42,208 bases of DNA from Promethearchaeati archaeon (GTDB lineage: Archaea > Asgardarchaeota > Heimdallarchaeia > Heimdallarchaeales > Heimdallarchaeaceae), in assembly GCA_013166775.1 (NCBI GenBank), contig JABLTJ010000030.1, positions 1 through 42,208 of the forward strand, in the 5' to 3' direction. How positions within the stretch are numbered: position 1 is the first letter of the stretch; every line of letters starts with the position of its first letter. The notes under the pieces are model-generated. The model made no database searches, was not told where the DNA came from, and was given only the letters and a program-made list of their open reading frames with translations. The position numbers and the translations under genes were made by a program. Shown one piece after another: positions 5,221-22,093 of this stretch.

Positions 5221-6207
5221 TTAAAAATAATCATCAACCATAGAAATTTCAAACATTGGTTGCTCCTTTACCGACCAGAAGGATTGCTTGTCAATCATAT
5301 ATTTGATTAGATAACTTGTTAGATCTGACTCTGAAAGATGTTTTCCTTTTTCAGTTCTTAATCCATGAATCTCTTTTACAAATTCAGTAAGTAATTTCAT
5401 AAGAAGGTTGGTTCCTTTGAAATCTTTACTTTCAGTAGTGACTAACCAACAAGATGTTTGACTATCAGCTGCCATAACTATTTGTCGGCTTTTAAACCTC
5501 ATATATTCTAGAATGGATTCGTCTCCATCCGCGAATTTGTATCGAATAACAGGATATAAGCCTTTATCAATTAAAGTGGGTTCTGGACTTCTAATTCTTG
5601 CTTCAACAATTCCTTGTTCTGTCTTGATATATGCTACAAAGTAATCAACAGCGATTCCAACGCTAATTAAATTCTCAATAATAGTATTAGCTAACCAATC
5701 TACTGTTTTCTTGATGTTTTTTCCTGTTATGGGAGAGATAGAGAAACATTCTATTCCACTAATGTTACCAGTAGTTTGGAAAATTTTACTTATGGATTGG
5801 ATGGTTTTACTATCAATTGACCTATCCCATGTGTTTATCAAAACTAAAACAGGGGATTGTTTCTTGATCCATTTTAGTGCGCGTACAAACCAGGTTTTTG
5901 ATTCATCTATTCTTTCTTCATTGGTTGCATCAACAACATAAATCAAAGCATCAGATTTAGAGATATAACTTTCCCATAAAGATTTTCTAAAAGGTTCTTG
6001 TCCCCCCAAATCTGTCAATCCAAGTCTAAGACCATCAATTTTTATGATTTCCTGATTAATTCCAAAAGTTGCGTAAGTTTCATGAATCTCTTCATGGAGA
6101 AGCTTATTAATAATTAGAGTCTTCCCTACCCCATCTAATCCTGCAACAGAGACAGTTAAATCTCTAGAGGACAGAGTCCAATCATTTCCATAGTTTGGCT
6201 CCAACAA
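5221..6207 (-). CDS. Arf-family small GTPase fused to a C-terminal longin/roadblock-like domain
   Basis: G1 GLDGVGKT, G2 TFGIN, G3 DLGGQ followed by FRKSLWESY, YVVDAT, atypical G4 NTWD, G5 SPITG; approx. 150-aa C-terminal extension with a beta-beta-alpha-beta-beta-beta-alpha-alpha pattern. Confidence 0.85.
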   Translation of the reverse strand: MLEPNYGNDWTLSSRDLTVSVAGLDGVGKTLIINKLLHEEIHETYATFGINQEIIKIDGLRLGLTDLGGQEPFRKSLWESYISKSDALIYVVDATNEERIDESKTWFVRALKWIKKQSPVLVLINTWDRSIDSKTIQSISKIFQTTGNISGIECFSISPITGKNIKKTVDWLANTIIENLISVGIAVDYFVAYIKTEQGIVEARIRSPEPTLIDKGLYPVIRYKFADGDESILEYMRFKSRQIVMAADSQTSCWLVTTESKDFKGTNLLMKLLTEFVKEIHGLRTEKGKHLSESDLTSYLIKYMIDKQSFWSVKEQPMFEISMVDDYF

Positions 6208-8093: not shown

Positions 8094-8100
8094 TTCCATA

Positions 8101-8138
8101 TCTTTTTTCTCTTTTATTCTTCATTTTTTTGCTTTTTC
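8101..8138 (+). terminator. Oligo-T tracts, probable archaeal intrinsic terminator of the thermosome gene
   Basis: TCTTTTTTCTCTTTTATTCTTCATTTTTTTGCTTTTTC immediately after the stop codon. Confidence 0.6.
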
Positions 8139-8188
8139 AAGGAAATCATTATTAATTATTTGACATAATAAAACAATTGAATAGAGAA

Positions 8189-8528
8189 ATGGAAGAGCAT
8201 GAAATAATAACTGATATAGAAAAGTTAACACCAGAATGGTTAACGAATATCTTCAAGAGTAATGGTTACCTCAACAAAGAAGAATTACAGCAATTACTAG
8301 TAGAAATACACTTGATGCATTTTCTTCTAATATAAATGCTTTGGAGTTAACTTTTTCAGAAGACGATCAGATGAAATCTGAATCCTTAAAAGCGATTATA
8401 AAAGCAGCTTCACCCAAAACCAAACATAGTCAATTTTTTAGTAAAAAAAAGTGGAATTTTATTATCTCGTTGCTGGACAGTTGAGTGGAAAATTAATTCC
8501 GAAATGCTATGATGCAAAATATTCTGAT
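8189..8528 (+). pseudogene. N-terminal remnant of an APH/EcKinase-like phosphotransferase with two frameshifts, truncated
   Basis: Across three frames it reads MEEHEIITDIEKLTPEWLTNIFKSNGYLNK / RITAITSRNTLDAFSSNINALELTFS...IIKAASPK / VEFYYLVAGQLSGKLIPKCYDAKYSD; TPEWLT and (E)VxFY...PxCYxA are typical of this family; frameshifts near 8279 and in the A8 run at 8443-8450. Confidence 0.65.
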
Positions 8529-8786
8529 ATCCTTGCTTTTCAGCTTTGTTTTTCAACGCTTTGATTACCCTTTCATCAGAATCTACAGAGTAGACTTTTC
8601 CTTCAAATCCAAGGTTTTAGTCATATGGAGTGAATAATAGCCCAGACCACAACCAAGGTCAGCAACTATTTGACCTGATTTAATATATGGTTCAACGAAT
8701 TTTTTAGGAGGTTCAAACATCCTTGCGATTTTATGTGAAAACAATGAAAATTGTTTATCTTGTTTCTCTTTCTTAATACTCATCAC
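8518..8786 (-). pseudogene. Class I SAM methyltransferase remnant, frameshifted and truncated
   Basis: Motif I VADLGCGLGYYS; after a frameshift near 8615 it continues LGFEGKVYSVDSDERVIKALKNKAEKQGYQNI and then runs into the kinase remnant. Confidence 0.75.
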
Positions 8787-8810
8787 AAAACAACCTGATT
8801 ATCTATAAAT

Positions 8811-9023
8811 TCAATCATAGGTTTTGAGTGCTTTGGTAATTTTATCAATCATATCGTTTGTAACTTTATTTGATTCAAGCTCAACAATAGAAACCCATGT
8901 TGAATAAGCTGCTTCTCTCACTTTTTGATTCTTATCTTTTATGCCATCCACTATAACATCCACTATTTCAGGGGTAAGTTCTAGTGTACCATCTGATTTG
9001 AGTTTTTGAGGAGTATAGGACAT
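8811..9023 (-). CDS. Small HEAT-repeat-like protein (70 aa)
   Basis: IVDVIVDGIKDKNQKVREAAYSTW fits the HEAT consensus LxxxLxDxxxxVRxxA; TATA-like element upstream on the minus strand (about 9044-9056). Confidence 0.6.
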   Translation of the reverse strand: MSYTPQKLKSDGTLELTPEIVDVIVDGIKDKNQKVREAAYSTWVSIVELESNKVTNDMIDKITKALKTYD

Positions 9024-9189
9024 TGTCTAATTTGTATCTAAGTATATATCTTAAAAAATCTTTTCCATTCTTCTCTAAAATGGAATATTTTGGTGTTTTT
9101 GGACTTTCCTGAGGTTTTGTAATGCAAAATTAACCAAATTCTTCTGCAGAAGATGGAAGTTATTTGGAAAAAAGAAAGAGAAAATGTCT

Positions 9190-11526: not shown

Positions 11527-11811
11527 TCATTCAGCTGTTGTTGAATAGACTTTGGTTCTTCTTGAGCTGATGATTCTCTTAACGATGTTATTAGCTTCTG
11601 CTTCTAGAAGTATCTTTTTTGCTGTACTTACTCGGATACTATATTTATCAGCAAGGTATGAAGGTGTAATGCCTTTAGCTCGTTTTAATTCATCGTCGAT
11701 TTTCTTCTTTGTATCTTCATCTGGAACAAGATCTCTTATTACTGGAATGAATTCAACAACTAATCCGAATTTCTTCTTCTTCCTAACTACTTTGCGTTCT
11801 TGTGCTGACAT
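11527..11811 (-). CDS. rps25e: Ribosomal protein eS25 (S25e)
   Basis: Basic N-terminus, ITPSYLADKYSIRVSTAKKIL winged-helix, ...RRTKVY. Confidence 0.88.
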   Translation of the reverse strand: MSAQERKVVRKKKKFGLVVEFIPVIRDLVPDEDTKKKIDDELKRAKGITPSYLADKYSIRVSTAKKILLEAEANNIVKRIISSRRTKVYSTTAE

Positions 11812-11931: not shown

Positions 11932-12924
11932 ATGGAAAAATTAGAGATTCTGTTGGACACATTGAAAGGTCAGAATTCTGAACGCGCTTTGTTTAGTTTA
12001 TGGAAACATTTTCCTTATGATGATAGAGATCCGATCAAATTAGCAGAAACTCATGTTAAATTTTATCATCGTCATGACTTTGATTTGATGAAAATATCTC
12101 CCCACGGTCGTTATCCTGTTGTTGATTTTGGATGCAAGGTTGATGAAGAATATGATTCTATTACTGGAAGCACTAGATGCAAAGAATGCACAATAAAGAC
12201 TCTTCAAGATTGGGAGGTATTAGAGCCAGTAGACACTAGTGAGGGTGAATTTGGAAAGCAATTACAATCAGTAAAGCAGATTCATAAGGAACTTGAATTT
12301 CTTCCTAAAATGATGACTGTGTTTTCTCCTTTGATGGTTGCATCAAAAATGGATAATAATCTTGTAAAAAATCTTAGAGAAAAACCTGATACCATGATGG
12401 ATGCATTGCACACTCTTCAAGACACTATGGTAGAATTTGCCCTCTCTTCATTAGATGAAGGAGCAGAAGGTATTTTTCTTGCATCTCAACATCTAAGAAA
12501 GACAAAATTAAATTGGGATGAAGTTGGAAAGTTTGAAGTTTCTTTTCTTAAGAAAATTATAAATCAACTCAAGAAAAAAGCTGATTTTATGGTTCTTCAT
12601 GTCCATGGTCAAGAAATAAAATTCAAAGAAGCTTCAGAACAGCTTAATGTTGATGCACTAAATTGGCATGACCAACTAACATGGCCATCGATGAAGGAAG
12701 CAGCAGAGATGTTTGATAAAGGATTATTTGCAGGTATTGATGAAACGCAAACACTTGTTGATGGAGATGTTCCAAATATTGTCAAAAATATCCAAAATGC
12801 TATTAAGGTTTCAGAGGAAAATGAGAGAAGAATAATAATAGCACCTGGTTGTGTGATTCCAATAACAGCTTCAGACAAATCCATTGATGCTATTTCAAAC
12901 GTATTCAAAAATCTTAGAAAATAG
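11932..12924 (+). CDS. Uroporphyrinogen decarboxylase (URO-D/MtaA)-superfamily protein
   Basis: WKHF, TVFSPL, GAEGIFLA, VLHVHG, LNWHD, AGIDE, IIAPGCVIP. Confidence 0.85.
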   Translation: MEKLEILLDTLKGQNSERALFSLWKHFPYDDRDPIKLAETHVKFYHRHDFDLMKISPHGRYPVVDFGCKVDEEYDSITGSTRCKECTIKTLQDWEVLEPVDTSEGEFGKQLQSVKQIHKELEFLPKMMTVFSPLMVASKMDNNLVKNLREKPDTMMDALHTLQDTMVEFALSSLDEGAEGIFLASQHLRKTKLNWDEVGKFEVSFLKKIINQLKKKADFMVLHVHGQEIKFKEASEQLNVDALNWHDQLTWPSMKEAAEMFDKGLFAGIDETQTLVDGDVPNIVKNIQNAIKVSEENERRIIIAPGCVIPITASDKSIDAISNVFKNLRK

Positions 12925-12933
12925 GTGCATTAA

Positions 12934-13587
12934 ATGAATGAGGAAGAACAGAAAACAGCTGTAATTTCAAGGAAACCAACAAGATTTGGTTGGAAAGATT
13001 TCATCCTAAATTTATGTTTTAGTTCAATCATGATAGTAAGTATTTATTTCTTTGATATAAGAGAAAGACCTGAAGATCTTGTTATTTTAGCTACTAGCAT
13101 TGTAGTTACTGTTCTTCCTTTACTTCTTTTTTCAGTAAGAGTATTCCATGAACTATCTTATGGAAGAGATTACATTGAAATTAGAGGAGATGTGCTTAAA
13201 TATCGCTCATCACCCCTTTTAACAACAGGTTTGCGTTTGAAAAAAGGTGAGATTACTCTAAGGGAAATAAGGAAGTATGGATTATCGAAAATACCTCGAA
13301 AATTATCTTTAGATCTCTGGAAACATAAGAAAAAAGCTATGCTTGTAATCTCCCTTAAGAGCGGTAAAGAACATTTCATTGGTGAGTATATAGACAATGA
13401 TGACTTAGCTGAAATTTGTGTTCATATACAGAACATCTACCCAAAAGCTAAACTAATCACAAACCTTTCTGAAGACTACCCAGAGCTTGCTAAAAAACAT
13501 GCAAAATTAGAAACAGCAAAGAAATTAAAGAAACTTGAAGAAGAAGAAGAAGAGGAACCAGAAGGTGCAGGATTTAGACGAAGGTAG
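12934..13587 (+). CDS. Two-TM membrane protein with a probable PH-like cytosolic domain and an acidic tail
   Basis: Two hydrophobic segments (aa ~22-40 and ~50-69) followed by a beta-rich region ending in a helix (LVISLKSGKEHFIGEYIDNDDLAEICVHI); SD GGTG upstream. Confidence 0.6.
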   Translation: MNEEEQKTAVISRKPTRFGWKDFILNLCFSSIMIVSIYFFDIRERPEDLVILATSIVVTVLPLLLFSVRVFHELSYGRDYIEIRGDVLKYRSSPLLTTGLRLKKGEITLREIRKYGLSKIPRKLSLDLWKHKKKAMLVISLKSGKEHFIGEYIDNDDLAEICVHIQNIYPKAKLITNLSEDYPELAKKHAKLETAKKLKKLEEEEEEEPEGAGFRRR

Positions 13588-13635
13588 GGAAAGTATCTCA
13601 ATTCTTATTAATGAAATTCAATAGAGAAATAATAG

Positions 13636-14700
13636 ATGGCACTTATACGAACTGATAATTTTTCAACAACAAAGGGTAATATTGCTGTATTAGAATTTGG
13701 ATCTACTATTCAAAATATAGTTGTGATAGATCCTTCTCATCCAGAAGAACCTTTGAGATTTGAACGTTTTTATCTTCCATTAAGAACCAGAGTATCAGAA
13801 TTAGAAGGTACATTGAAAACACTTCTTCGTTCTTATGCAGATTATAAGATAAGAAAATTCATCTTAACAATAACTAGTTCGTTTTTCTCTTCACCAAAAG
13901 AAACTGTTGAGTATGTAGTCGATTCTGTTACCAAGTTTATTCTACCTGCAAATATAGTATGTTATACAATTGACGGTAATTTCATTTCAGTAGAAGCTGC
14001 TTTAAGAGTCCCACATAAAATAGTATCTGCAGGATGGAAAGCACTTGGCTTGGGTATCTGGAATCTAATTCAGAAAGATGCATTAATCGTGGATTTCTCT
14101 ACTAGGACAACAAGCTTCATTCCATTAAAAGAGGGAAGAATACAATCGCTATCACTATCTGATTATGAAAGAATCAAGAACAATGAGATTCTCTATTTTG
14201 GTCTACTAGAGACTAATGCAGCATTCATTCAACCAAATCTTGAATATGATGGAAACATTTACAATTTACCCTTTGAAACGTACTCTCAAACAGCTGATAT
14301 CTTTCTGATAACTGAAGATCTACATACCACAGATTATATTGTTGACACTTCTGATAAGAAAGCTAAATTTAAGGAAGATTCATTAAATAGACTCAAAAAT
14401 ATGTTGCGTATCACTGATGATTCCTTTGATGATTATGAGTTAATTAAGATCGCCCACTTACTCAAAACAAAGTTGCTAGAGAAGATAAATCAGAATATTA
14501 GAAGAAAGTTATTTGAGAACGAACTCAAAGTAATTATTCTAACGGGAATAGGTTCGAATATACTTTACCAATATCTTAAAAACAAGAATGAATACGACGA
14601 AATTATTCAGGCAACAGATGTTATACGAACAGCAGAAATTAATCCCTCCTTCTGTTTAGCGTATCTTTATGCATCACAGAAGATGATGACAGATGGCTGA
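13636..14700 (+). CDS. MfnF-like / H4MPT-linked C1-transfer (hydantoinase A, ASKHA fold) protein with degenerate catalytic motifs
   Basis: Colinear with the family pattern: YLPL, VSAGWKAL (cf. SANW), LIVDFSTRTTSFIPL (cf. VDIGSTTTDIIP), SDYERI...EILYFGLLET (cf. DxxRL...ELVYxGxxRT), TADIF, DYIVDTSD, ILTGIG. Confidence 0.7.
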   Translation: MALIRTDNFSTTKGNIAVLEFGSTIQNIVVIDPSHPEEPLRFERFYLPLRTRVSELEGTLKTLLRSYADYKIRKFILTITSSFFSSPKETVEYVVDSVTKFILPANIVCYTIDGNFISVEAALRVPHKIVSAGWKALGLGIWNLIQKDALIVDFSTRTTSFIPLKEGRIQSLSLSDYERIKNNEILYFGLLETNAAFIQPNLEYDGNIYNLPFETYSQTADIFLITEDLHTTDYIVDTSDKKAKFKEDSLNRLKNMLRITDDSFDDYELIKIAHLLKTKLLEKINQNIRRKLFENELKVIILTGIGSNILYQYLKNKNEYDEIIQATDVIRTAEINPSFCLAYLYASQKMMTDG

Positions 14701-15931
14701 AAGAGCAGATCTTAGAAACAGAATTAACGTGATGTTATTTCATTTTGATCAAAGGCTTGGCCCTAGGTTATTGTTTAATGTTGCAGAGATACAAGATGAA
14801 AGAATAACTGCTTCACTAACCAGATTAATGGATTTCAATTTTTTGGAAGAGCATAGAGCTTTTGTCAATGCAATGGCTAACGTTGTATATTCAAGTATGT
14901 TTTTCTCTATCCCTAATCCCCTAGCTCGTGGAGGAGCAGAACAATTTATGCTTTCCTTTGTTATTTTTGATCCAACTATTACAGAATATCTAACAATTTC
15001 TTCATTAGAAGAAGAAATGTCGAAGACCATAAGCAAACTAATCGAACTTTCTGAAATGTTCATAATAATCACTTACTCCAAACCTATTCTAGATGATTTT
15101 CCTGAAGTTGATAATTGCTTAAGCTCGTTAAGAAACAATGCAATCAATATCTTTCAAGAGCTTTTCTACGGTCAATTCGAAGGGAGAAAAGATGCAATTT
15201 CTCAAATATTAGGGAAAATTGGCTATGAAGCTGGAAAAGCAATTTTGTCAAGATTAAAACCAGAACATTCTGATTCGTCTAGAACCTATTTGGATGCGAT
15301 ATTAAGATCTCCTACTGTAAATAGATGGGGTGTCATCAATATACTTCACTTTGATCCTGATGAAAAGGTTGCAACTGTTTCTCTCAAAAACTCTATTTGG
15401 ACCGATTCTCTTGGTGTAATAGCTACAAAAGCTTGTGCATATATAGAGGGGATGCTTGAAGCTATTTTCAGTCAAATTCTAGGAGAACCTATTGTTAGTA
15501 ATGAAATGAGATGTGCAGGAGAATACAGCTATGTCCAAGATTGTATTTTTCAGATTGCACCAAGAGGTGTGAATAGGGAAACAATTTCCTACAGAGAAGA
15601 TCAAACAATTCGAGAGATGGGAATCAGTGATAGGAAAGAAACAATTAATCTAATTAAGCAAGATATTGGAGAACAAATTTATCAGGATTTAGATCCCATG
15701 ATTAAGCTAATTCAATTATTCAACAAAGCTCCTTTTATCTCAGATTTCTTTTTTGATGAAACAAAATTCCTTGTAGTTTGTAATTATTGGAGATATCCTG
15801 ATGAAATAATCTGCAATTCTTGTGAGAAATGGTTGAAAAAATCAAGTCAGGTTCAAGTTAATTTAACAAAAAGCAAACACAGAATTTGTGAAATAACTTA
15901 CGAAACTGAAGAGGAAAAAATTGAAAAATAA
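14693..15931 (+). CDS. Folliculin/SMCR8-like longin (uDENN) domain fused to a V4R domain and a Cys-containing C-terminal domain
   Basis: N-terminal LFHFDQRLGPRLLF ... FFSIPNPLARGG..FMLSF; V4R pattern IGYEAGK...WG.I.I...V.L.NS.W...CAYIEGML.AIFS.ILG...EMRC...CIFQI; overlaps the upstream gene by 8 nt. Confidence 0.75.
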   Translation: MAERADLRNRINVMLFHFDQRLGPRLLFNVAEIQDERITASLTRLMDFNFLEEHRAFVNAMANVVYSSMFFSIPNPLARGGAEQFMLSFVIFDPTITEYLTISSLEEEMSKTISKLIELSEMFIIITYSKPILDDFPEVDNCLSSLRNNAINIFQELFYGQFEGRKDAISQILGKIGYEAGKAILSRLKPEHSDSSRTYLDAILRSPTVNRWGVINILHFDPDEKVATVSLKNSIWTDSLGVIATKACAYIEGMLEAIFSQILGEPIVSNEMRCAGEYSYVQDCIFQIAPRGVNRETISYREDQTIREMGISDRKETINLIKQDIGEQIYQDLDPMIKLIQLFNKAPFISDFFFDETKFLVVCNYWRYPDEIICNSCEKWLKKSSQVQVNLTKSKHRICEITYETEEEKIEK

Positions 15932-15990: not shown

Positions 15991-17538
15991 ATGCTGCTTG
16001 CTATGAAATATGATGTCAATGATTCTTCTGTAAATGCAGAGGATGAAACTGTAGCCTCAGAACTTCAAGAGCCTGACAAACCTCCATCATCTAAAGAATT
16101 AAGCATAGCAGTTTTAATAACCTCAATTGGAGTGGGTATTTTCATAGCTTCAATTGATGGTACTATTACTAATGTTTCCCTTCCCGTAATAGCGAATGAT
16201 CTAGAAGTAGAACAGAATATTGCTCAGTGGGTAATTTTAGCTTACCTTTTAACCTTAATTGGCTTTACAGCTATTGCCGGTGATCTAGGAGATAGATTTA
16301 GTAATAAAATCATTTTACAAATCGGAACAGCGATTTTCGTTGTAGGATCTCTTTTTTGTGCATTGTCAACAACTTTGCTTTGGTTGGTTTTAGCAAGAAT
16401 ACTCCAAGCTTTAGGTGCTTGTTGTGGGATGGCAAATGGTACTGCAATAATTACAAGATTCACAACGAAGGAAAATAGAGGAACAGCATTAGGATTAAAC
16501 GCATTAATTATAGCAGCAGGTATCACAGTAGGACCCATTCTAGGTGGATTGTTAACAGATAAATTCGGATGGCCAAGTATATTCTACATAAACATACCAC
16601 TAGGGATAATTGGTTTAGCTTACGTGCAGTTTGCTATTCCAAAAACACCACCGATGCAAGAAGAAAGAAGAGAAGCAGATGTAATTGGTTCAGTAAGTTT
16701 CATGTTGTTTCTAACTCTATTGGTCTTCAGTTTAACGGTTTTTGTAGATGAGAACATTCCAAACCCAGAGATATGGGGAGGAATAGGTATAGCTACGAGC
16801 ATTGTTTTATTCGTTATATTCATCCTCTGGGAAAAGAGAACGAAGAAACCTATAATAGACCTTAATATGTTCAAGAACAGAAGATTCGCTTTTGGTATTC
16901 TAGCTGCTGTTTTAGCTTATCAAAGCTTGAATGTTATTTTCTACCAACTACCTTTCTATTTAAGAGAAATGCAAAATATGGAAATTATACAAATAGGATT
17001 GGTGATCATTGGAGCACCAGTTGGGATGGCTATCGTTGGACCTTTTGCTGGCAAACTTTCAGATAGAATAGATCCTAGACTAATAGCATCAATAGGGATG
17101 ATTGGAATTACGATTGATCTAATGCTATTAGCAATTTTCCTAAAAGAAGATACTTCATATTGGTTCTTTATAATAGCAGCACTTATTCTAGGGATGTCGC
17201 TAGGAGCGTTTATCTCACCAAATTCTAATTCCATTATGTCAGCAGCTCCAAAAGATAAATTAGGTGTTGCAGGTGGCCTTATGAATCTATCAACACAAGT
17301 TGGATTCAGCATAGGAACAGCTTTGTCAACTGCAGTATTCTTTATACTGAGAAACACTTTTCAAAGAAATAATGGATTACCAGCTAAGGATCCGATAAAT
17401 TACATCCCCGCTATGAAAATCATGTTTGCTATTTTTGTTGGCGTAGGAATATTAGCAGTGTTTGTATCATACCTTAGAGGTCCAGAAGAAGGGAAAAAAG
17501 AGCTAAAACTTAAATTTCTCAACAAAGATGAGAACTAA
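15991..17538 (+). CDS. MFS transporter, DHA2 (EmrB/QacA) family, 14 TM
   Basis: IDGTITNVSLP, GDLGDRF (motif A), LARILQALG, GPILGGLL...WPSIFYINIPLG, GKLSDR. Confidence 0.93.
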   Translation: MLLAMKYDVNDSSVNAEDETVASELQEPDKPPSSKELSIAVLITSIGVGIFIASIDGTITNVSLPVIANDLEVEQNIAQWVILAYLLTLIGFTAIAGDLGDRFSNKIILQIGTAIFVVGSLFCALSTTLLWLVLARILQALGACCGMANGTAIITRFTTKENRGTALGLNALIIAAGITVGPILGGLLTDKFGWPSIFYINIPLGIIGLAYVQFAIPKTPPMQEERREADVIGSVSFMLFLTLLVFSLTVFVDENIPNPEIWGGIGIATSIVLFVIFILWEKRTKKPIIDLNMFKNRRFAFGILAAVLAYQSLNVIFYQLPFYLREMQNMEIIQIGLVIIGAPVGMAIVGPFAGKLSDRIDPRLIASIGMIGITIDLMLLAIFLKEDTSYWFFIIAALILGMSLGAFISPNSNSIMSAAPKDKLGVAGGLMNLSTQVGFSIGTALSTAVFFILRNTFQRNNGLPAKDPINYIPAMKIMFAIFVGVGILAVFVSYLRGPEEGKKELKLKFLNKDEN

Positions 17539-17560
17539 AGAGGGAAGAAAAAATCGTCTA

Positions 17561-18193
17561 CTATAATTTCTTTTTAGCTATATATTCTATCATTCCTAAA
17601 TTATCTACCCATCCTTCATTTTTTAGCAAAATCCATTTTCTTATAGAGATGAAATCAAAATTTTCAAAATACATATCCGCTTCCCTATCTTCATAATACG
17701 AATGAAGGACGTCTTCACCAAATTCCTTTTGTAAGAACTCTCCTTTCTCCATTTCTTTTCCTTCCCCATACCCTACACAGTCATATGAAGGAAAATTAGT
17801 GAAGATTAAACCCCCAAGTATCAACACTCTTTCCATCTCTTGAATAGCTTTACCTACTTCTTTTTTACTCATATGAAAAATCGTGTGATGACTAAAAACA
17901 AAACTAAAGGATTCATCTTCATAAGGTAGCTCTTTCATATCTCCTTTGATAATATTAAAATCCATATTATTCTTCAGAGCAAATGCTTCTGCTCTTTCTA
18001 TTTGACTGTCTAAGATCTCTATACCATGAGTTTCATAACCTTCTACAAAGAAAATTGCCAGGGGAGGAGAACCACCACCTGCTCCACAATCAAGAATTTT
18101 TTTGGGTAAATTGCTTTTATTGCATTCGTTTAGAAAATCAAAAACGGGTGTATCTCTTCTGTGTAAACTCAACATAATAACACAAGAACTCAA
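17561..18193 (-). CDS. Class I SAM-dependent methyltransferase (start uncertain)
   Basis: ILDCGAGG, GDMKELPYEDESFSFVF, MERVLILGG. Confidence 0.9.
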   Translation of the reverse strand: MSSCVIMLSLHRRDTPVFDFLNECNKSNLPKKILDCGAGGGSPPLAIFFVEGYETHGIEILDSQIERAEAFALKNNMDFNIIKGDMKELPYEDESFSFVFSHHTIFHMSKKEVGKAIQEMERVLILGGLIFTNFPSYDCVGYGEGKEMEKGEFLQKEFGEDVLHSYYEDREADMYFENFDFISIRKWILLKNEGWVDNLGMIEYIAKKKL

Positions 18194-18236
18194 TTGACAC
18201 TTATGATTTTTTCTATGAAATTAAAGACTACTCTAA

Positions 18237-19226
18237 CTAGTTTTCTTTCTTATAACATTTGTATGATTCTCGTAAAACTTCCTCAAAAGATATCTGAGTT
18301 GAGACCCCTAATTTCTTTTCAATCTTCTCTGTATTCACAAGTCTTGATTTTCCCATTTGTTTAACTCTGTATCTATTCAATAATGGTCTTTTCTTGACGA
18401 GTTTCCACTGCAACTCGCCTATCAACCCCACAATCATAGCGATTTTATAATTTAGATTGTAAGAATCAAATTCTGTATTACTTATTTTAGCTGCAGTTTC
18501 AAATAATTCCTTATTTGTTACTTGAAAACTAGTATGATTAAATGCTTCCCCTTTTGCTTCATCTAATTCTTCCATTTTCATCAAAGATTCAATTATATCA
18601 AAGACATAGCTATAAGCATAAACAACATTGTCTCCATTTATTAAAGGAATTTTCTTTCCACTCTCAACTAATTTGAATATATTGGGGATCCAATGTGGAT
18701 CTCCAGGGCCAAAAATTCCAGGAGGTCTTAAAACTGAAGCTTTAAAGCCAAATTCTTCAGCAAACTTGAAAACTTCTTTTTCACCTAGGTATTTACTTTC
18801 TCTGTATCCTGGAATTAAATCAACTTCATAATCCTCATCTATAGGATAATCAGGTAAGTTAAAACCAAAAATACCCAAAGTGCTCATATAAATGAAAGTG
18901 TTTGAGCCAGCATCAACAAACTCCTCCAGTAAATTTTTTGTTCCCAGATGATTTATTTTGTAAAAATTCGATAAAGGTGCTAGATCGTCGACAATCGCAG
19001 CAAGATGAAAGACAGATTCAATCCCATCAAAACATCCCTTAAGACTAGCTTTTGAACTTACATCGCCAAAAATGAAATTTATTTCATATTTTTCATACTC
19101 CTTACACATTTCCCTTTCATGAGGAAGAATTAGTGCAGATAAGTCTTTATTTGGATATTTACTTCTTAGCTCTCTGACAAGATGAGAACCAAGAAAACCA
19201 GTTAAACCAGTAATCAGAATGGACAT
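18237..19226 (-). CDS. Extended SDR, NAD-dependent epimerase/dehydratase (3-beta-HSD-like)
   Basis: ITGLTGFLG, VFHLAA, INHLGTKNLL, YMST, YRESK (YxxxK), LRPPGIFGPGD; ATG at 19226 preferred over GTG at 19250. Confidence 0.92.
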   Translation of the reverse strand: MSILITGLTGFLGSHLVRELRSKYPNKDLSALILPHEREMCKEYEKYEINFIFGDVSSKASLKGCFDGIESVFHLAAIVDDLAPLSNFYKINHLGTKNLLEEFVDAGSNTFIYMSTLGIFGFNLPDYPIDEDYEVDLIPGYRESKYLGEKEVFKFAEEFGFKASVLRPPGIFGPGDPHWIPNIFKLVESGKKIPLINGDNVVYAYSYVFDIIESLMKMEELDEAKGEAFNHTSFQVTNKELFETAAKISNTEFDSYNLNYKIAMIVGLIGELQWKLVKKRPLLNRYRVKQMGKSRLVNTEKIEKKLGVSTQISFEEVLRESYKCYKKEN

Positions 19227-19272
19227 ATCGAGTATTGATAAAGTCTTCACAAGTTAAAAATACTTCTATAAT

Positions 19273-19357
19273 TTTGAAAATAAAGTAGAAATTTTCCACT
19301 TTTTAAAGACTAAGAAAAATTTAAACCTATAATTTTTCCATCTTCTATGGAGTTTAT
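19273..19357 (-). repeat. Decayed duplicate of the fhs 3' end and its terminator
   Basis: 19318-19357 matches 20220-20259 at 32/40 nt; TTTGAAAA(T)AAAGTAGAAA at 19273-19291 matches 20188-20205. Confidence 0.75.
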
Positions 19358-19426
19358 ATTATTTACAAGTAGCAACTCTTTCTTTTATAATTTGAAAAAT
19401 TGTAAATAGATTCTTCTTCAGAATCA

Positions 19427-20137
19427 TTATAATGATTTTCTCCTTTTCTTTCGAAAAGCAAGGTACGAGGATACTAGTAACAGAACAATTAGATAAGTGT
19501 AAGAATATGATATTGTAAATGTTTGACGTTCATTATCTTCGTTATTGGTATCTGTATTGGGTTCTTCTTCAGGAAACGTAAAGGTTGTATTAGCACCATT
19601 ATGAGTTATTTGAATATCGGAACCATTAACTGCAATTTCAGAGGTAAAATGGTGGTAGTTATGTTGTTCTTCATACTCAGCTAAAAAAATCCAAACTGTG
19701 TAGTTACCATTAGGAAGAGCTTCCAAAGTATCATTTACAGAGAATGTAAAAGTTAGTATTCCTTCAGTAATTCCAGGATTAATGGTGTGATTTGTGAAAG
19801 CATCACCACAAAGACTTGGACCCCCCCTTACTTGACCAAAATATTGTTCATTTTCAAATGATAGATTTCCAGTCACAAAAACAAGACAAGTGGTTGAGGT
19901 ATATATATACAAAATTCTACCAGAGGGATTGATGATCTCAAAAGTGTATTCAAACTCAAAAAAAGTCCATTTAGGGTAGTTTTCTCTATAAATCAATTCT
20001 GGTGGAAGAACTATTTCTGTCATACGAGTATATATTGTATATTCAGAAACAGTTGCTTGAGGTAAAAACAAAGAGAAAGAAAGAGTAATTGAGAAGATAA
20101 TACAAATAGAAGGAAGATGTTTGAGCATTCCATTCAT
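19427..20137 (-). CDS. Secreted, C-terminally membrane-anchored surface protein
   Basis: N-terminal signal peptide, beta-rich extracellular body with NxT/S sequons, acidic linker, C-terminal TM followed by RKKRRK. Confidence 0.8.
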   Translation of the reverse strand: MNGMLKHLPSICIIFSITLSFSLFLPQATVSEYTIYTRMTEIVLPPELIYRENYPKWTFFEFEYTFEIINPSGRILYIYTSTTCLVFVTGNLSFENEQYFGQVRGGPSLCGDAFTNHTINPGITEGILTFTFSVNDTLEALPNGNYTVWIFLAEYEEQHNYHHFTSEIAVNGSDIQITHNGANTTFTFPEEEPNTDTNNEDNERQTFTISYSYTYLIVLLLVSSYLAFRKKRRKSL

Positions 20138-20217: not shown

Positions 20218-21909
20218 TTAATTCAAACCTATAATTTCTCCATCATCTGTAAAGTCCATTCGTTCTGCAGCGGGGACAGGAGGTAAACCAGGTATAAGGA
20301 ACATACTGCCACAGACAGGAACGATGAAACGAGCACCAGTATATAAACGAACCTCGTCTACATTAAGTGTCCAATCAGTTGGAGCACCCATTGTACCAAC
20401 TTTATCAGTGATACTGAGCTGAGTTTTGGCCATACAGAGAGGCAAATCAGTGAAACCGAGTTTTTCTATATAAGCGATATCTTGTAAAGCTTGAGGAGAG
20501 TATTCAACTTCCTTTGCACCATAGACTTTTTTAGCGATTTTCTCAATTTTAACTTTGATGGGATCAGAGAATTCATAGGCAAATCGAACATCACCTGAAC
20601 CCTTTTCAATAGCTTTGAGAACAGCTTCAGCTAGTTCGAGACCACCTTCACCACCTTTCATGAAAACTTCACTAACAGCGGCTTCAGCTCCTAGCTCTTC
20701 ACATTTATTCTTAATCCAATCAATCTCTTCATCACTATCAAAGGGGAAACGATTGATAGCGACAACAGGAGGAATATTGAATATATTGAGCATATTATCA
20801 AGATGTTTTTCAACATTGGTAAAGCCCTTGGCCAGTTCCTCCATATGAACATTCTTAGCTTCGTCTAAGCTTTTGATACCACCGTGGAGCTTAAGAGCGC
20901 GAGCGGTAACGACTAAGACAACAGTAGAGGGGAGAGTATTGTACTGGCGTGCAACAATATCAACGAATTTCTCAAAACCTAAGTCAGCAGCAAAACCACC
21001 TTCAGTAAGAGTGTAATCAGCTAATTTGAGGGCTAACTTTGTTGCAATAATACTGCTATTTCCGTGTGCAACATTCGCAAAAGGCCCGGCATGTATGAAT
21101 CCTGGTACTCCTTCGAAATTCTGCACTAGGTTTGGTTTTATTGCATCTTTTAGTATTAGCACCATTGCTCCTACTGCTTTCAGATCTTTTGCATATACTG
21201 CTTTATCTTCATATGTGTATCCTACTAGTATATTTCCTAATCTTTCTCTTAGTTCGGCTACATCTGCTGACAATGCTAGTATCGCCATTATTTCTGAAGC
21301 TGCTGTAATTACGAAACCTGTGTTTCTTATATCCCCACCCATTCTTCTTCCACCAAGACCTATAATTATGTTTCTTAACGCCCTATCATTCACGTCCATT
21401 GTTCTTGGCCAAGTTACTTTTGTTGGATCTATTGTTAGTTTATTTCCTTTTGTTAAGTGGTTATCTATCATTGCAGCTAATAAGTTATGAGCAGATGTTA
21501 CTGCATGTAGATCTCCTGTAAAGTGCAGATCTATATCCCACATTGGAAAGACTTGTGATTGTCCTCCTCCTGTAGCTCCACCCTTTATTCCAAATGTTGG
21601 TCCCATACTTGGTTCTCTTATAGCAAACATTGCTTTCTTACCAATTTTTTGTAATGCTTGAGAAAGGCCTATTGTTGTAACAGTTTTACCTTCACCTGCT
21701 CTTGAAGCAGTCATTGCTGTAACAAAAATCAATTTTCCGTTTGGCTTATCTGATTTTAGTATTTTTAGCATTGTTTGGTAGTTTATTTTTGCTACATACT
21801 TTCCGAATTGCTCGAGGTCTTCTTCTTCCAGACCTACTTTTGCAGCAATCTCCCTAATATTTTTCATGTCTTTTTGTTTTTCTTGTGCAATTTCTATATC
21901 AGTTTTCAT
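20218..21909 (-). CDS. fhs: Formate--tetrahydrofolate ligase
   Basis: AGEGKT, REPSMGPTFGIKGGATGGG, LHFTGDLHA, HAGPFANVAHG, TEGGFAADLGFEKF, CMAKTQLS, PGLP; ATG at 21909 preferred. Confidence 0.97.
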   Translation of the reverse strand: MKTDIEIAQEKQKDMKNIREIAAKVGLEEEDLEQFGKYVAKINYQTMLKILKSDKPNGKLIFVTAMTASRAGEGKTVTTIGLSQALQKIGKKAMFAIREPSMGPTFGIKGGATGGGQSQVFPMWDIDLHFTGDLHAVTSAHNLLAAMIDNHLTKGNKLTIDPTKVTWPRTMDVNDRALRNIIIGLGGRRMGGDIRNTGFVITAASEIMAILALSADVAELRERLGNILVGYTYEDKAVYAKDLKAVGAMVLILKDAIKPNLVQNFEGVPGFIHAGPFANVAHGNSSIIATKLALKLADYTLTEGGFAADLGFEKFVDIVARQYNTLPSTVVLVVTARALKLHGGIKSLDEAKNVHMEELAKGFTNVEKHLDNMLNIFNIPPVVAINRFPFDSDEEIDWIKNKCEELGAEAAVSEVFMKGGEGGLELAEAVLKAIEKGSGDVRFAYEFSDPIKVKIEKIAKKVYGAKEVEYSPQALQDIAYIEKLGFTDLPLCMAKTQLSITDKVGTMGAPTDWTLNVDEVRLYTGARFIVPVCGSMFLIPGLPPVPAAERMDFTDDGEIIGLN

Positions 21910-22093
21910 AGTAATCATCACTTAAACTTATTAATTGAACTCATTTTTAGGTATGGATTAAAAAGTATTTAGATAGACATAGAAAATGAATATTTTTTTC
22001 AAGTTTTTTGCAGTTTCACAATTTTTTTTCTGCCTATTATTGGACAAATAGATACGTTCTAAAATAACCGTGGGCAGTTAGTGGTAGAAGATA

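Follow-up and report, generated by a model that had tools for sequence, protein, structure and literature searches.

A heimdallarchaeial longin–V4R protein with motifs like those of GTPase-activating longins, and the four-gene block that it closes

Longin complexes that act as GTPase-activating proteins (GAPs), i.e., folliculin, GATOR1 and C9orf72–SMCR8, control nutrient signalling at the lysosome of eukaryotes. A signature of such GAP longins has been described, which consists of a GP motif before strand 2 of the fold and a neighbouring arginine finger; according to the same source, TRAPP and other longins lack it, whereas heimdallarchaeial “FLCN/SMCR8-type” longins have it (Traffic 2025, PMC12290439). 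The subject of this article is a gene that we call g4, the product of which joins a longin domain to a V4R domain and a four-cysteine module, together with the three genes that precede it (g1, g2 and g3). They lie in a stretch of 42,208 nucleotides (nt) of DNA (the whole of which is referred to as the window) from a Promethearchaeati archaeon of the family Heimdallarchaeaceae (assembly GCA_013166775.1, contig JABLTJ010000030.1). We consider it a little more probable than not that the four genes form a lineage-specific cluster which has become fixed in the Heimdallarchaeaceae, the parts of which have separate histories, and in which g4 encodes a ligand-gated regulator of an Arf- or Rag-like GTPase; the regulator, judged by its motifs, would probably be of the GAP type.

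Parts of g4 recall two other well-described systems. In the sensors PoxR, MopR, DmpR and XylR, the V4R domain is the N-terminal sensor of a sigma-54 activator and has zinc ligands comprising a Cys in a helix, a Glu-x2-Cys and a Cys in a hairpin, whereas in g4 the output domain is a longin. In the TRAPP core, the same two folds as in g4 (Bet3-family proteins and the longins Bet5, Trs23 and Trs20) act jointly on a small GTPase, but TRAPP is a multi-subunit guanine nucleotide exchange factor (GEF) with longins that lack the GP motif, whereas g4 has GAP-class motifs and a zinc-type V4R domain. A longin–TRAPPC3 fusion from a Heimdall archaeon, MBD3190748.1, was presented by Tran et al. 2024 (PMC10933270, Fig. 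9g and Supplementary Fig. 10g). It has the same domain order as g4, with an N-terminal longin followed by the TRAPPC3/V4R fold, and very probably belongs to the same family, its accession not being among the cluster members listed for g4; its neighbouring genes, the GP and arginine motifs and the C-terminal cysteine module are not treated in that paper. The architecture of g4 and its motifs are, between them, already in the literature (Tran 2024; Traffic 2025).

The four genes, and the domains of g4, are as follows:

11932-12924, + strand: g1, URO-D/MtaA-like TIM-barrel enzyme of 330 amino acids (aa), apparently intact (Pfam PF01208)
12934-13587, + strand: g2, protein of 217 aa with a two-helix membrane hairpin and a PH-like domain (from a structure model)
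13636-14700, + strand: g3, divergent MfnF/TIGR03123-like ASKHA protein of 354 aa (profile scores and a match to PDB 3c0b)
14693-15931, + strand: g4, longin, V4R and four-cysteine protein of 412 aa (structure model, fold matches and alignment)
14705-15166, + strand: longin domain of g4, residues 5-158, with G23-P24 at 14759-14764 and Arg79 at 14927-14929
15170-15577, + strand: V4R/TRAPPC3-fold domain of g4, residues 160-295, with the zinc-site pattern C248, E271, C274 and C284
15578-15928, + strand: C-terminal module of g4, residues 296-412, helices followed by two beta-hairpins, with C363, C374, C377 and C399

Successive genes are spaced by 9, 48 and −8 nt, the start of g4 overlapping the end of g3 by 8 nt. 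Compared with two genomes of the same genus, the ratio of nonsynonymous to synonymous substitution rates (dN/dS) is 0.12 for g1, 0.08-0.15 for g2, 0.11-0.13 for g3 and 0.02-0.03 for g4. Since these values lie between 0.02 and 0.15, all four open reading frames (ORFs) are confirmed as real genes under purifying selection, which acts most strongly on g4. An earlier, sequence-only reading of the window had described four co-oriented genes with these gaps, encoding a URO-D-like protein, a two-transmembrane (two-TM)/PH-like protein, a degenerate MfnF-like protein and a longin–V4R fusion with a GAP-type longin. Those descriptions are upheld by the layout above and by the profile scores, fold matches and conserved residues given below for each gene; genes, folds, motifs, selection and phyletic pattern are reported here as observed.

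The AlphaFold2 (AF2) model of g4 has a predicted local distance difference test score (pLDDT) of 73.8. Residues 5-158 have a longin fold, as seen from matches to the Lokiarchaeal longin 8yqg (Z 11.7), to Lst4 (Z 11.0), and to FLCN (6nzd_H) and a GATOR1 chain (7t3b_C), each with Z 10.4. The SNARE longin Sec22b ties with these (Z 10.1) and, therefore, the longin fold alone does not single out the GAP class. The residues G23, P24, R25, R79, G80 and G81 are invariant in 21 homologues of g4, including one from another family (f2) with only 27% identity. In the model, the GP motif stands at the start of strand 2 (residues 23-30), i.e., where the published signature places it, and R79 (in the sequence ARGG) is in the loop between strands 64-74 and 82-92. 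The eukaryotic GAP longins (FLCN–FNIP, NPRL2 of GATOR1, SMCR8–C9orf72) and the heimdallarchaeial FLCN/SMCR8-type longins (PMC12290439) are resembled by g4 in fold (Z 10-11), in the GP motif ahead of strand 2 and in a loop of that sheet which bears a conserved arginine; like the latter proteins, g4 occurs in Heimdallarchaeia. As far as can be judged from these residues, g4 appears to fit the published GAP-longin signature, and R79 would be the equivalent of the eukaryotic arginine fingers. A Heimdallarchaeota cluster in the ESM-Atlas that neighbours the longin of g4 has Pfam Folliculin (PF11704) in 23% of its members.

Residues 160-295 have the V4R/TRAPPC3 fold. The best structural matches are PoxR, DmpR and MopR (Z 13-14), followed by Bet3 and Trs33 (Z about 12). 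The Pfam V4R profile (PF02830) reaches an E of 1.3e-5 and 25.6 bits on g4, which is under its gathering cut-off of 31; source databases do assign PF02830 to homologues of g4. The zinc-site pattern in this domain, C248/E271/C274/C284, has the spacing C-x22-E-x2-C-x9-C, and the zinc ligands reported for XylR, PoxR, MopR and DmpR are C149/E172/C175/C183. The pattern of g4 matches these sensor-type ligands in spacing and, in the model, in helix and hairpin position.

Instead of a GAP, the combination of a longin and a Bet3 fold in one chain could also be a minimal TRAPP-core-like platform, which would serve a Rab-like GTPase as GEF or scaffold. This is how Tran et al. 2024 interpret the Heimdall longin–TRAPPC3 fusion; the match to the Bet3/Trs33/TRAPPC3 fold with a Z of about 12 agrees with it, and most longin platforms are GEFs (PMC12290439). 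However, the GP motif, reported to be specific to GAPs and absent from TRAPP longins, is invariant in g4 together with R79, which sets g4 apart from the longins of TRAPP (no search was made for other TRAPP subunits), and the V4R domain is closer to the bacterial sensor type and keeps the zinc ligands of the sensors. With both the GP motif and a zinc site of the sensor type confirmed, the GEF interpretation was downgraded and is now regarded as very unlikely.

The C-terminal module of g4 has four cysteines, C363, C374, C377 and C399, which are invariant in the alignment of the 21 homologues. The fold of this region was not identified, the structure searches having barely covered it, and a feature search of the ESM-Atlas with the C-terminal part gave no usable match. 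Full-length g4 falls into only two clusters at 50% identity among 1.84 billion representative proteins. Members of the family occur in the original Heimdall AB_125 genome, in Ca. Heimdallarchaeum endolithica and in Ca. Heimdallarchaeum aukensis, and are annotated as hypothetical, V4R-domain or “hydrocarbon binding” proteins. The sole distant full-length homologue, with 27-29% identity, is the one from family f2, which represents the second of these clusters; in its locus (L021:3667-11084) it sits among unrelated genes, between an ATC_hydrolase-like gene and Tsr3, with none of g1-g3 beside it. UEV-like, Vps28-like and EAP30/Vps36-like genes (ESCRT-I/II) lie within 5 kb of that homologue.

Zinc-stabilised V4R pocket domains of the kind found in g4 bind phenolics or lipids. 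In the mechanism that we propose, g4 would dimerise via its longin domains, its V4R domains, or both. A small hydrophobic ligand would enter the V4R pocket and shift the geometry of the longin platform, and this shift would switch Arg79-dependent GTPase activation, the target being an Arf- or Rag-like GTPase whose gene lies elsewhere in the genome. The ligand gating, the GAP activity, the target GTPase and any protein contact are what we infer from the folds and motifs.

Several points weigh against this explanation. Longin GAPs of eukaryotes work as heterodimers of two different longin proteins, whereas a search of the genome with g4 found one such longin only, and no second longin partner was identified. 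The residue R79 would be the counterpart of FLCN R164, NPRL2 R78 and SMCR8 R147 going by its position in the loop and by a likeness of the local sequence to that of FLCN. Pfam Folliculin (PF11704) has no match in g4 at E values up to 0.1, and a profile of the g4 longin domain has none among PDB sequences at E values up to 10. Also unlike the GAP-type longins with which it was compared, g4 is a single chain in which the longin is followed by a V4R domain and a four-cysteine module, and it has no DENN domain. A further point concerns the cluster rather than the protein: downstream of the four genes, the run of unrelated genes fhs, AN1-M50, FMN_dh, THUMP, AMMECR1, Mut7-C and CBS is equally collinear across the family, so that gene order at this level says little.

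The product of the gene that overlaps g4, g3, resembles MfnF/TIGR03123, a family involved in methanofuran biosynthesis, with which it has the fold and overall layout in common. It matches the structural-genomics entry PDB 3c0b with an E of 1e-27, but scores far below the curated cut-offs, i.e., 149.7 versus 244.1 bits for TIGR03123 and 137.8 versus 520 bits for MfnF (NF040623). Canonical Asgard MfnF-like proteins have the motifs DxGGANTK, TAELxD, DxGSTTTD and LRT in the alignment, in place of which g3 has, throughout its family, DFGxTTQK, a non-acidic stretch, (D/E)FSTRTTS and LET. Thus, conserved acidic and glycine residues of the phosphate motifs have been replaced, and the replacements are themselves conserved within the Heimdallarchaeaceae. 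No other MfnF-like gene is present in the genome. A search for FTR, an enzyme that depends on methanofuran, did not find it in three Heimdallarchaeaceae genomes, one of which is closed (3.3 Mb), but did find it in two further Asgard genomes with canonical MfnF-like genes. On this comparative evidence, g3 can be described as an orphaned and remodelled MfnF-like protein that is still under constraint; it may plausibly be a pseudoenzyme.

Since the reading frames of g3 and g4 overlap in two genera, g3 is a possible accessory or ligand-presenting partner of g4. A prediction of a g3–g4 complex, with both proteins supplied as alignments, scored 0.00 against a mark of 0.32 and counts as evidence neither way. 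In a bolder version of the proposal, g4 would be a metabolite-gated Rag/Arf-like GAP, the pseudoenzyme g3 its ligand sensor and g2 its membrane tether, all in one operon; the role of g3 would then be analogous to those of Sestrin, CASTOR and SAMTOR, which feed into GATOR in eukaryotes. We give this version little credence.

The protein encoded by g1 is a member of the URO-D superfamily, with an E of 6.5e-25 and 88.3 bits for Pfam URO-D (PF01208; gathering cut-off 23.9). All scores against NCBIfam models are far below the respective cut-offs for MtaA/CmuA, MtbA and HemE (TIGR01463, 45.8 versus 235; MtaA, 31.9 versus 400; HemE, 17.8 versus 303), and a search of PDB sequences gave no match. Single-copy orthologues with 33-43% identity are present in 138 of the 300 Asgard genomes sampled, and in their alignment W24, H26, D31, K54, H223-x-H225, N244-W245 and P305-G306-C307 are invariant. 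Because these invariant polar residues are kept across the Asgard orthologues, g1 looks like an intact, pan-Asgard enzyme; its H-x-H ... PGC pattern may be likened to the zinc motif of MtaA (H-x-C ... C). A canonical bPH_2 protein (PF03703, E 3e-19) is encoded directly upstream of the g1 orthologue in one sister-family genome (L089:5592-7291). An older pairing of URO-D and PH proteins was considered on this account and rejected as chance, as the pairing occurs in none of 18 other loci with g1 orthologues.

In the AF2 model of g2 (pLDDT 73.9), a short strand at the N-terminus is followed by a hairpin of two helices (residues 20-43 and 49-76), then by a beta-sandwich and finally by another helix; the protein ends in an acidic/basic tail. 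Its top structural matches are of the PH superfold (CARMIL, neurobeachin, TFIIH p62 and FACT) with middling Z scores of 7-8.5, and the closest ESM-Atlas clusters include some named DUF304 and PH_40. There is no Pfam match in g2, that to bPH_2 (PF03703) included, and comparison of the g2 family with a true bPH_2 protein by hhalign gave a probability of 0.2, i.e., no similarity. With modest confidence, and on the model, “two-TM/PH-like” seems a fair label for g2. It is present in all 28 of the Heimdallarchaeaceae genomes sampled and has weak matches in four of the 11 genomes of the sister family f3; elsewhere among the 300 Asgard genomes it was not found.

In the sister family, the weak g2 homologue is followed directly by a gene for a multi-pass membrane protein with an AN1 zinc finger, at four of the four loci examined:

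L095:6445-7931: g2-like gene and AN1 gene, sister family
L096:1334-2783: g2-like gene and AN1 gene, sister family
L097:4095-5568: g2-like gene and AN1 gene, sister family
L098:6696-8115: g2-like gene and AN1 gene, sister family

The closest relative of this AN1 protein is encoded in other genera of the Heimdallarchaeaceae by a gene that has 8 nt in common with the end of g4 (L027:9229-10230), and carries HExxH and P..DG motifs as in an M50/S2P protease. In the genome analysed here, the AN1 gene is on a different contig (G000 C102:59848-60750), among unrelated genes. The PH-like protein and the AN1 zinc-finger, S2P-like protein may be a conserved membrane pair, the latter being the older partner of g2. 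Because the AN1 gene follows the g2-like gene in the sister family and overlaps g4 in other genera, the block looks like a mosaic of an older g2/AN1 pair, a pan-Asgard enzyme, and a younger g3–g4 pair that was inserted between the members of the older pair.

The order g1-g2-g3-g4 is found in every Heimdallarchaeaceae locus examined, which represent five genera. In all five, g1 and g2 are 2-14 nt apart or overlap by 4 nt. The gap between g2 and g3 ranges from 45 to 272 nt (176-272 nt in the genus labelled g10), and g3 and g4, which overlap in two genera, are separated by 42-147 nt in the others. The flanks vary: PK_C replaces RadA/S25e upstream in the genus labelled g11, and the downstream gene changes. 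Outside the Heimdallarchaeaceae, no two of g1-g4 are adjacent in any locus examined, so that the linkage does not extend beyond close relatives. MfnF-like homologues occur in 138 of the 300 Asgard genomes and, in the genomes outside the family that were checked, they and the g1 homologues are on different contigs or about 100 kb apart; loci of g1 orthologues outside the family have varied neighbours.

A plain neighbourhood is an alternative explanation: the order would have been inherited in a slowly rearranging family, the functions would be unrelated, and g4 would act alone or with partners encoded elsewhere. The block is indeed embedded in a stretch of more than 13 unrelated genes that keep their order across the family, its components differ in phyletic range, and the AN1 gene, a fifth member where it overlaps g4, has gone to another contig here while the other four genes have been kept. 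Yet the start/stop overlap of g3 and g4 in two genera, and a distance between g1 and g2 that exceeds 14 nt in no genus, point to co-translation at least within those pairs, and the edges of the block coincide with rearrangement breakpoints on both sides. We hold this alternative to be rather unlikely.

At the other extreme stands the proposal that goes back to the sequence-only reading. In it, all four products would work as a single module tethered to the membrane, comparable in a prokaryote to sensor-GATOR/FLCN-Rag signalling; g2 would be the anchor, and the V4R pocket and a dead g3 would detect a cofactor or metabolite made or handled by g1 and gate the longin GAP. The natural substrate of MfnF has a phenol group and V4R domains of the PoxR type bind phenols, so that a shared class of ligand is conceivable on general grounds. 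The tight spacing and single orientation of the genes, the order kept in five genera while both flanks change, the constraint on g3 despite its replaced catalytic-type motifs, and the GAP-type motifs of g4 all accord with a single module. They have to be set against the occurrence of g1 and MfnF-like homologues, each in 138 of 300 Asgard genomes, unlinked where checked and with varied neighbours at the g1-orthologue loci; against the distant full-length homologue of g4 that has none of g1-g3 alongside; against the g2–g3 gaps of up to 176-272 nt in genus g10; and against the different gene, that for the AN1 protein, which partners g2 in the sister family. What stands of the module is the gene order within the family, and what falls is the linkage of its parts, which are separate outside the family and have different histories. 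Similarly, the conservation of the neighbourhood, which had been put forward as the check on this proposal, is real in five genera of Heimdallarchaeaceae but shallow, with none in the loci examined beyond the family. We consider a single module distinctly unlikely.

In the lineage-specific cluster of separate histories that we favour, g1 and g2 probably share a transcript with g3 and g4 in this genome. There are Shine-Dalgarno-like GAGG/GGTG sequences ahead of g1 and g2, the 48-nt gap between g2 and g3 has no run of five or more T, and a run of five T follows g4; these intergenic signals appear compatible with one transcript in this genome, without proving one. A shared function of g1 and g2 with g3 and g4 is a hypothesis that is supported by shallow, family-level gene order only.

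The remainder of the window includes two small GTPase genes and fhs, as the sequence-only reading had pointed out:

5221-6207, − strand: Arf-like GTPase of 328 aa, extended at the C-terminus by about 150 aa
33415-34155, + strand: Ras/Rab-like GTPase
20218-21921, − strand: fhs

The Arf-like and Ras/Rab-like genes are 5.7 and 17.5 kb, respectively, from the four-gene block, behind unrelated genes. With 33 Ras-superfamily matches over the 3.85 Mb of the genome, about 0.36 would be expected per 42 kb, and the presence of two in one 42-kb window is only mildly unusual (about 5% by chance, Poisson). The Arf-like GTPase is a candidate client or partner of g4; the genome has other GTPases of roughly 330 aa with C-terminal domains (G000 C16:92819-93304, C97:59100-59594 and C97:81739-82209). 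The gene at 5221-6207 was also considered as a conserved neighbour of the block and rejected in that role, as it accompanies the block only in the genera labelled g1 (a genus label, distinct from the gene g1) and g10 and is not beside it in the other genera sampled. Among the neighbours of the g4 longin in the ESM-Atlas are Arf-family proteins from Asgard archaea with a length of about 347 aa, and these hint at GTPase–longin fusions.

Upstream of g1 there is a RadA gene, and also a small ORF on the opposite strand (11527-11811) that occupies the slot in which relatives have a gene for ribosomal S25e. Downstream of g4 is a gene for an MFS transporter, the first of a set of genus-specific genes between g4 and fhs (15991-20137; MFS transporter, methyltransferase, epimerase and a 236-aa ORF); in other genera, the AN1 gene or fhs itself comes directly after g4. 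Another genome of the same genus has an extra, decayed copy of the 3′ end of fhs (L024:9231-9437), which agrees with the earlier interpretation of 19318-19357 as an insertion footprint. An ORF of 122 aa at 29773-30141 matches Pfam EMC6 (ER membrane protein complex subunit) with 29.5 bits, the cut-off being 23.3. Between the thermosome and FprA-like genes, 1.1 kb (8094-9189) contain no ORF of at least 90 aa, only short frames, which may be decayed genes; one piece of 67 aa has a GxGxG stretch like that of methyltransferases. The G+C content is about 33% across the window, and an Rfam search of all of it found nothing at gathering scores.

The genes that surround g4 have so far added no demonstrated biology. 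They do provide a short list of candidate partners, on which g3 comes first, followed by g2 and the AN1 zinc-finger, S2P-like membrane protein. The origin of the longin GAP complexes is a question on which g4 touches directly: in a protein that is under very strong selection, a GAP-type longin is joined to a small-molecule pocket domain, making it a compact and expressible test case. It bears on whether GAP activity and its control by a ligand predate eukaryotes, and on which GTPase would be the target. If the metabolite-gated operon were true, it would be an archaeal forerunner of the nutrient signalling of FLCN and GATOR1.

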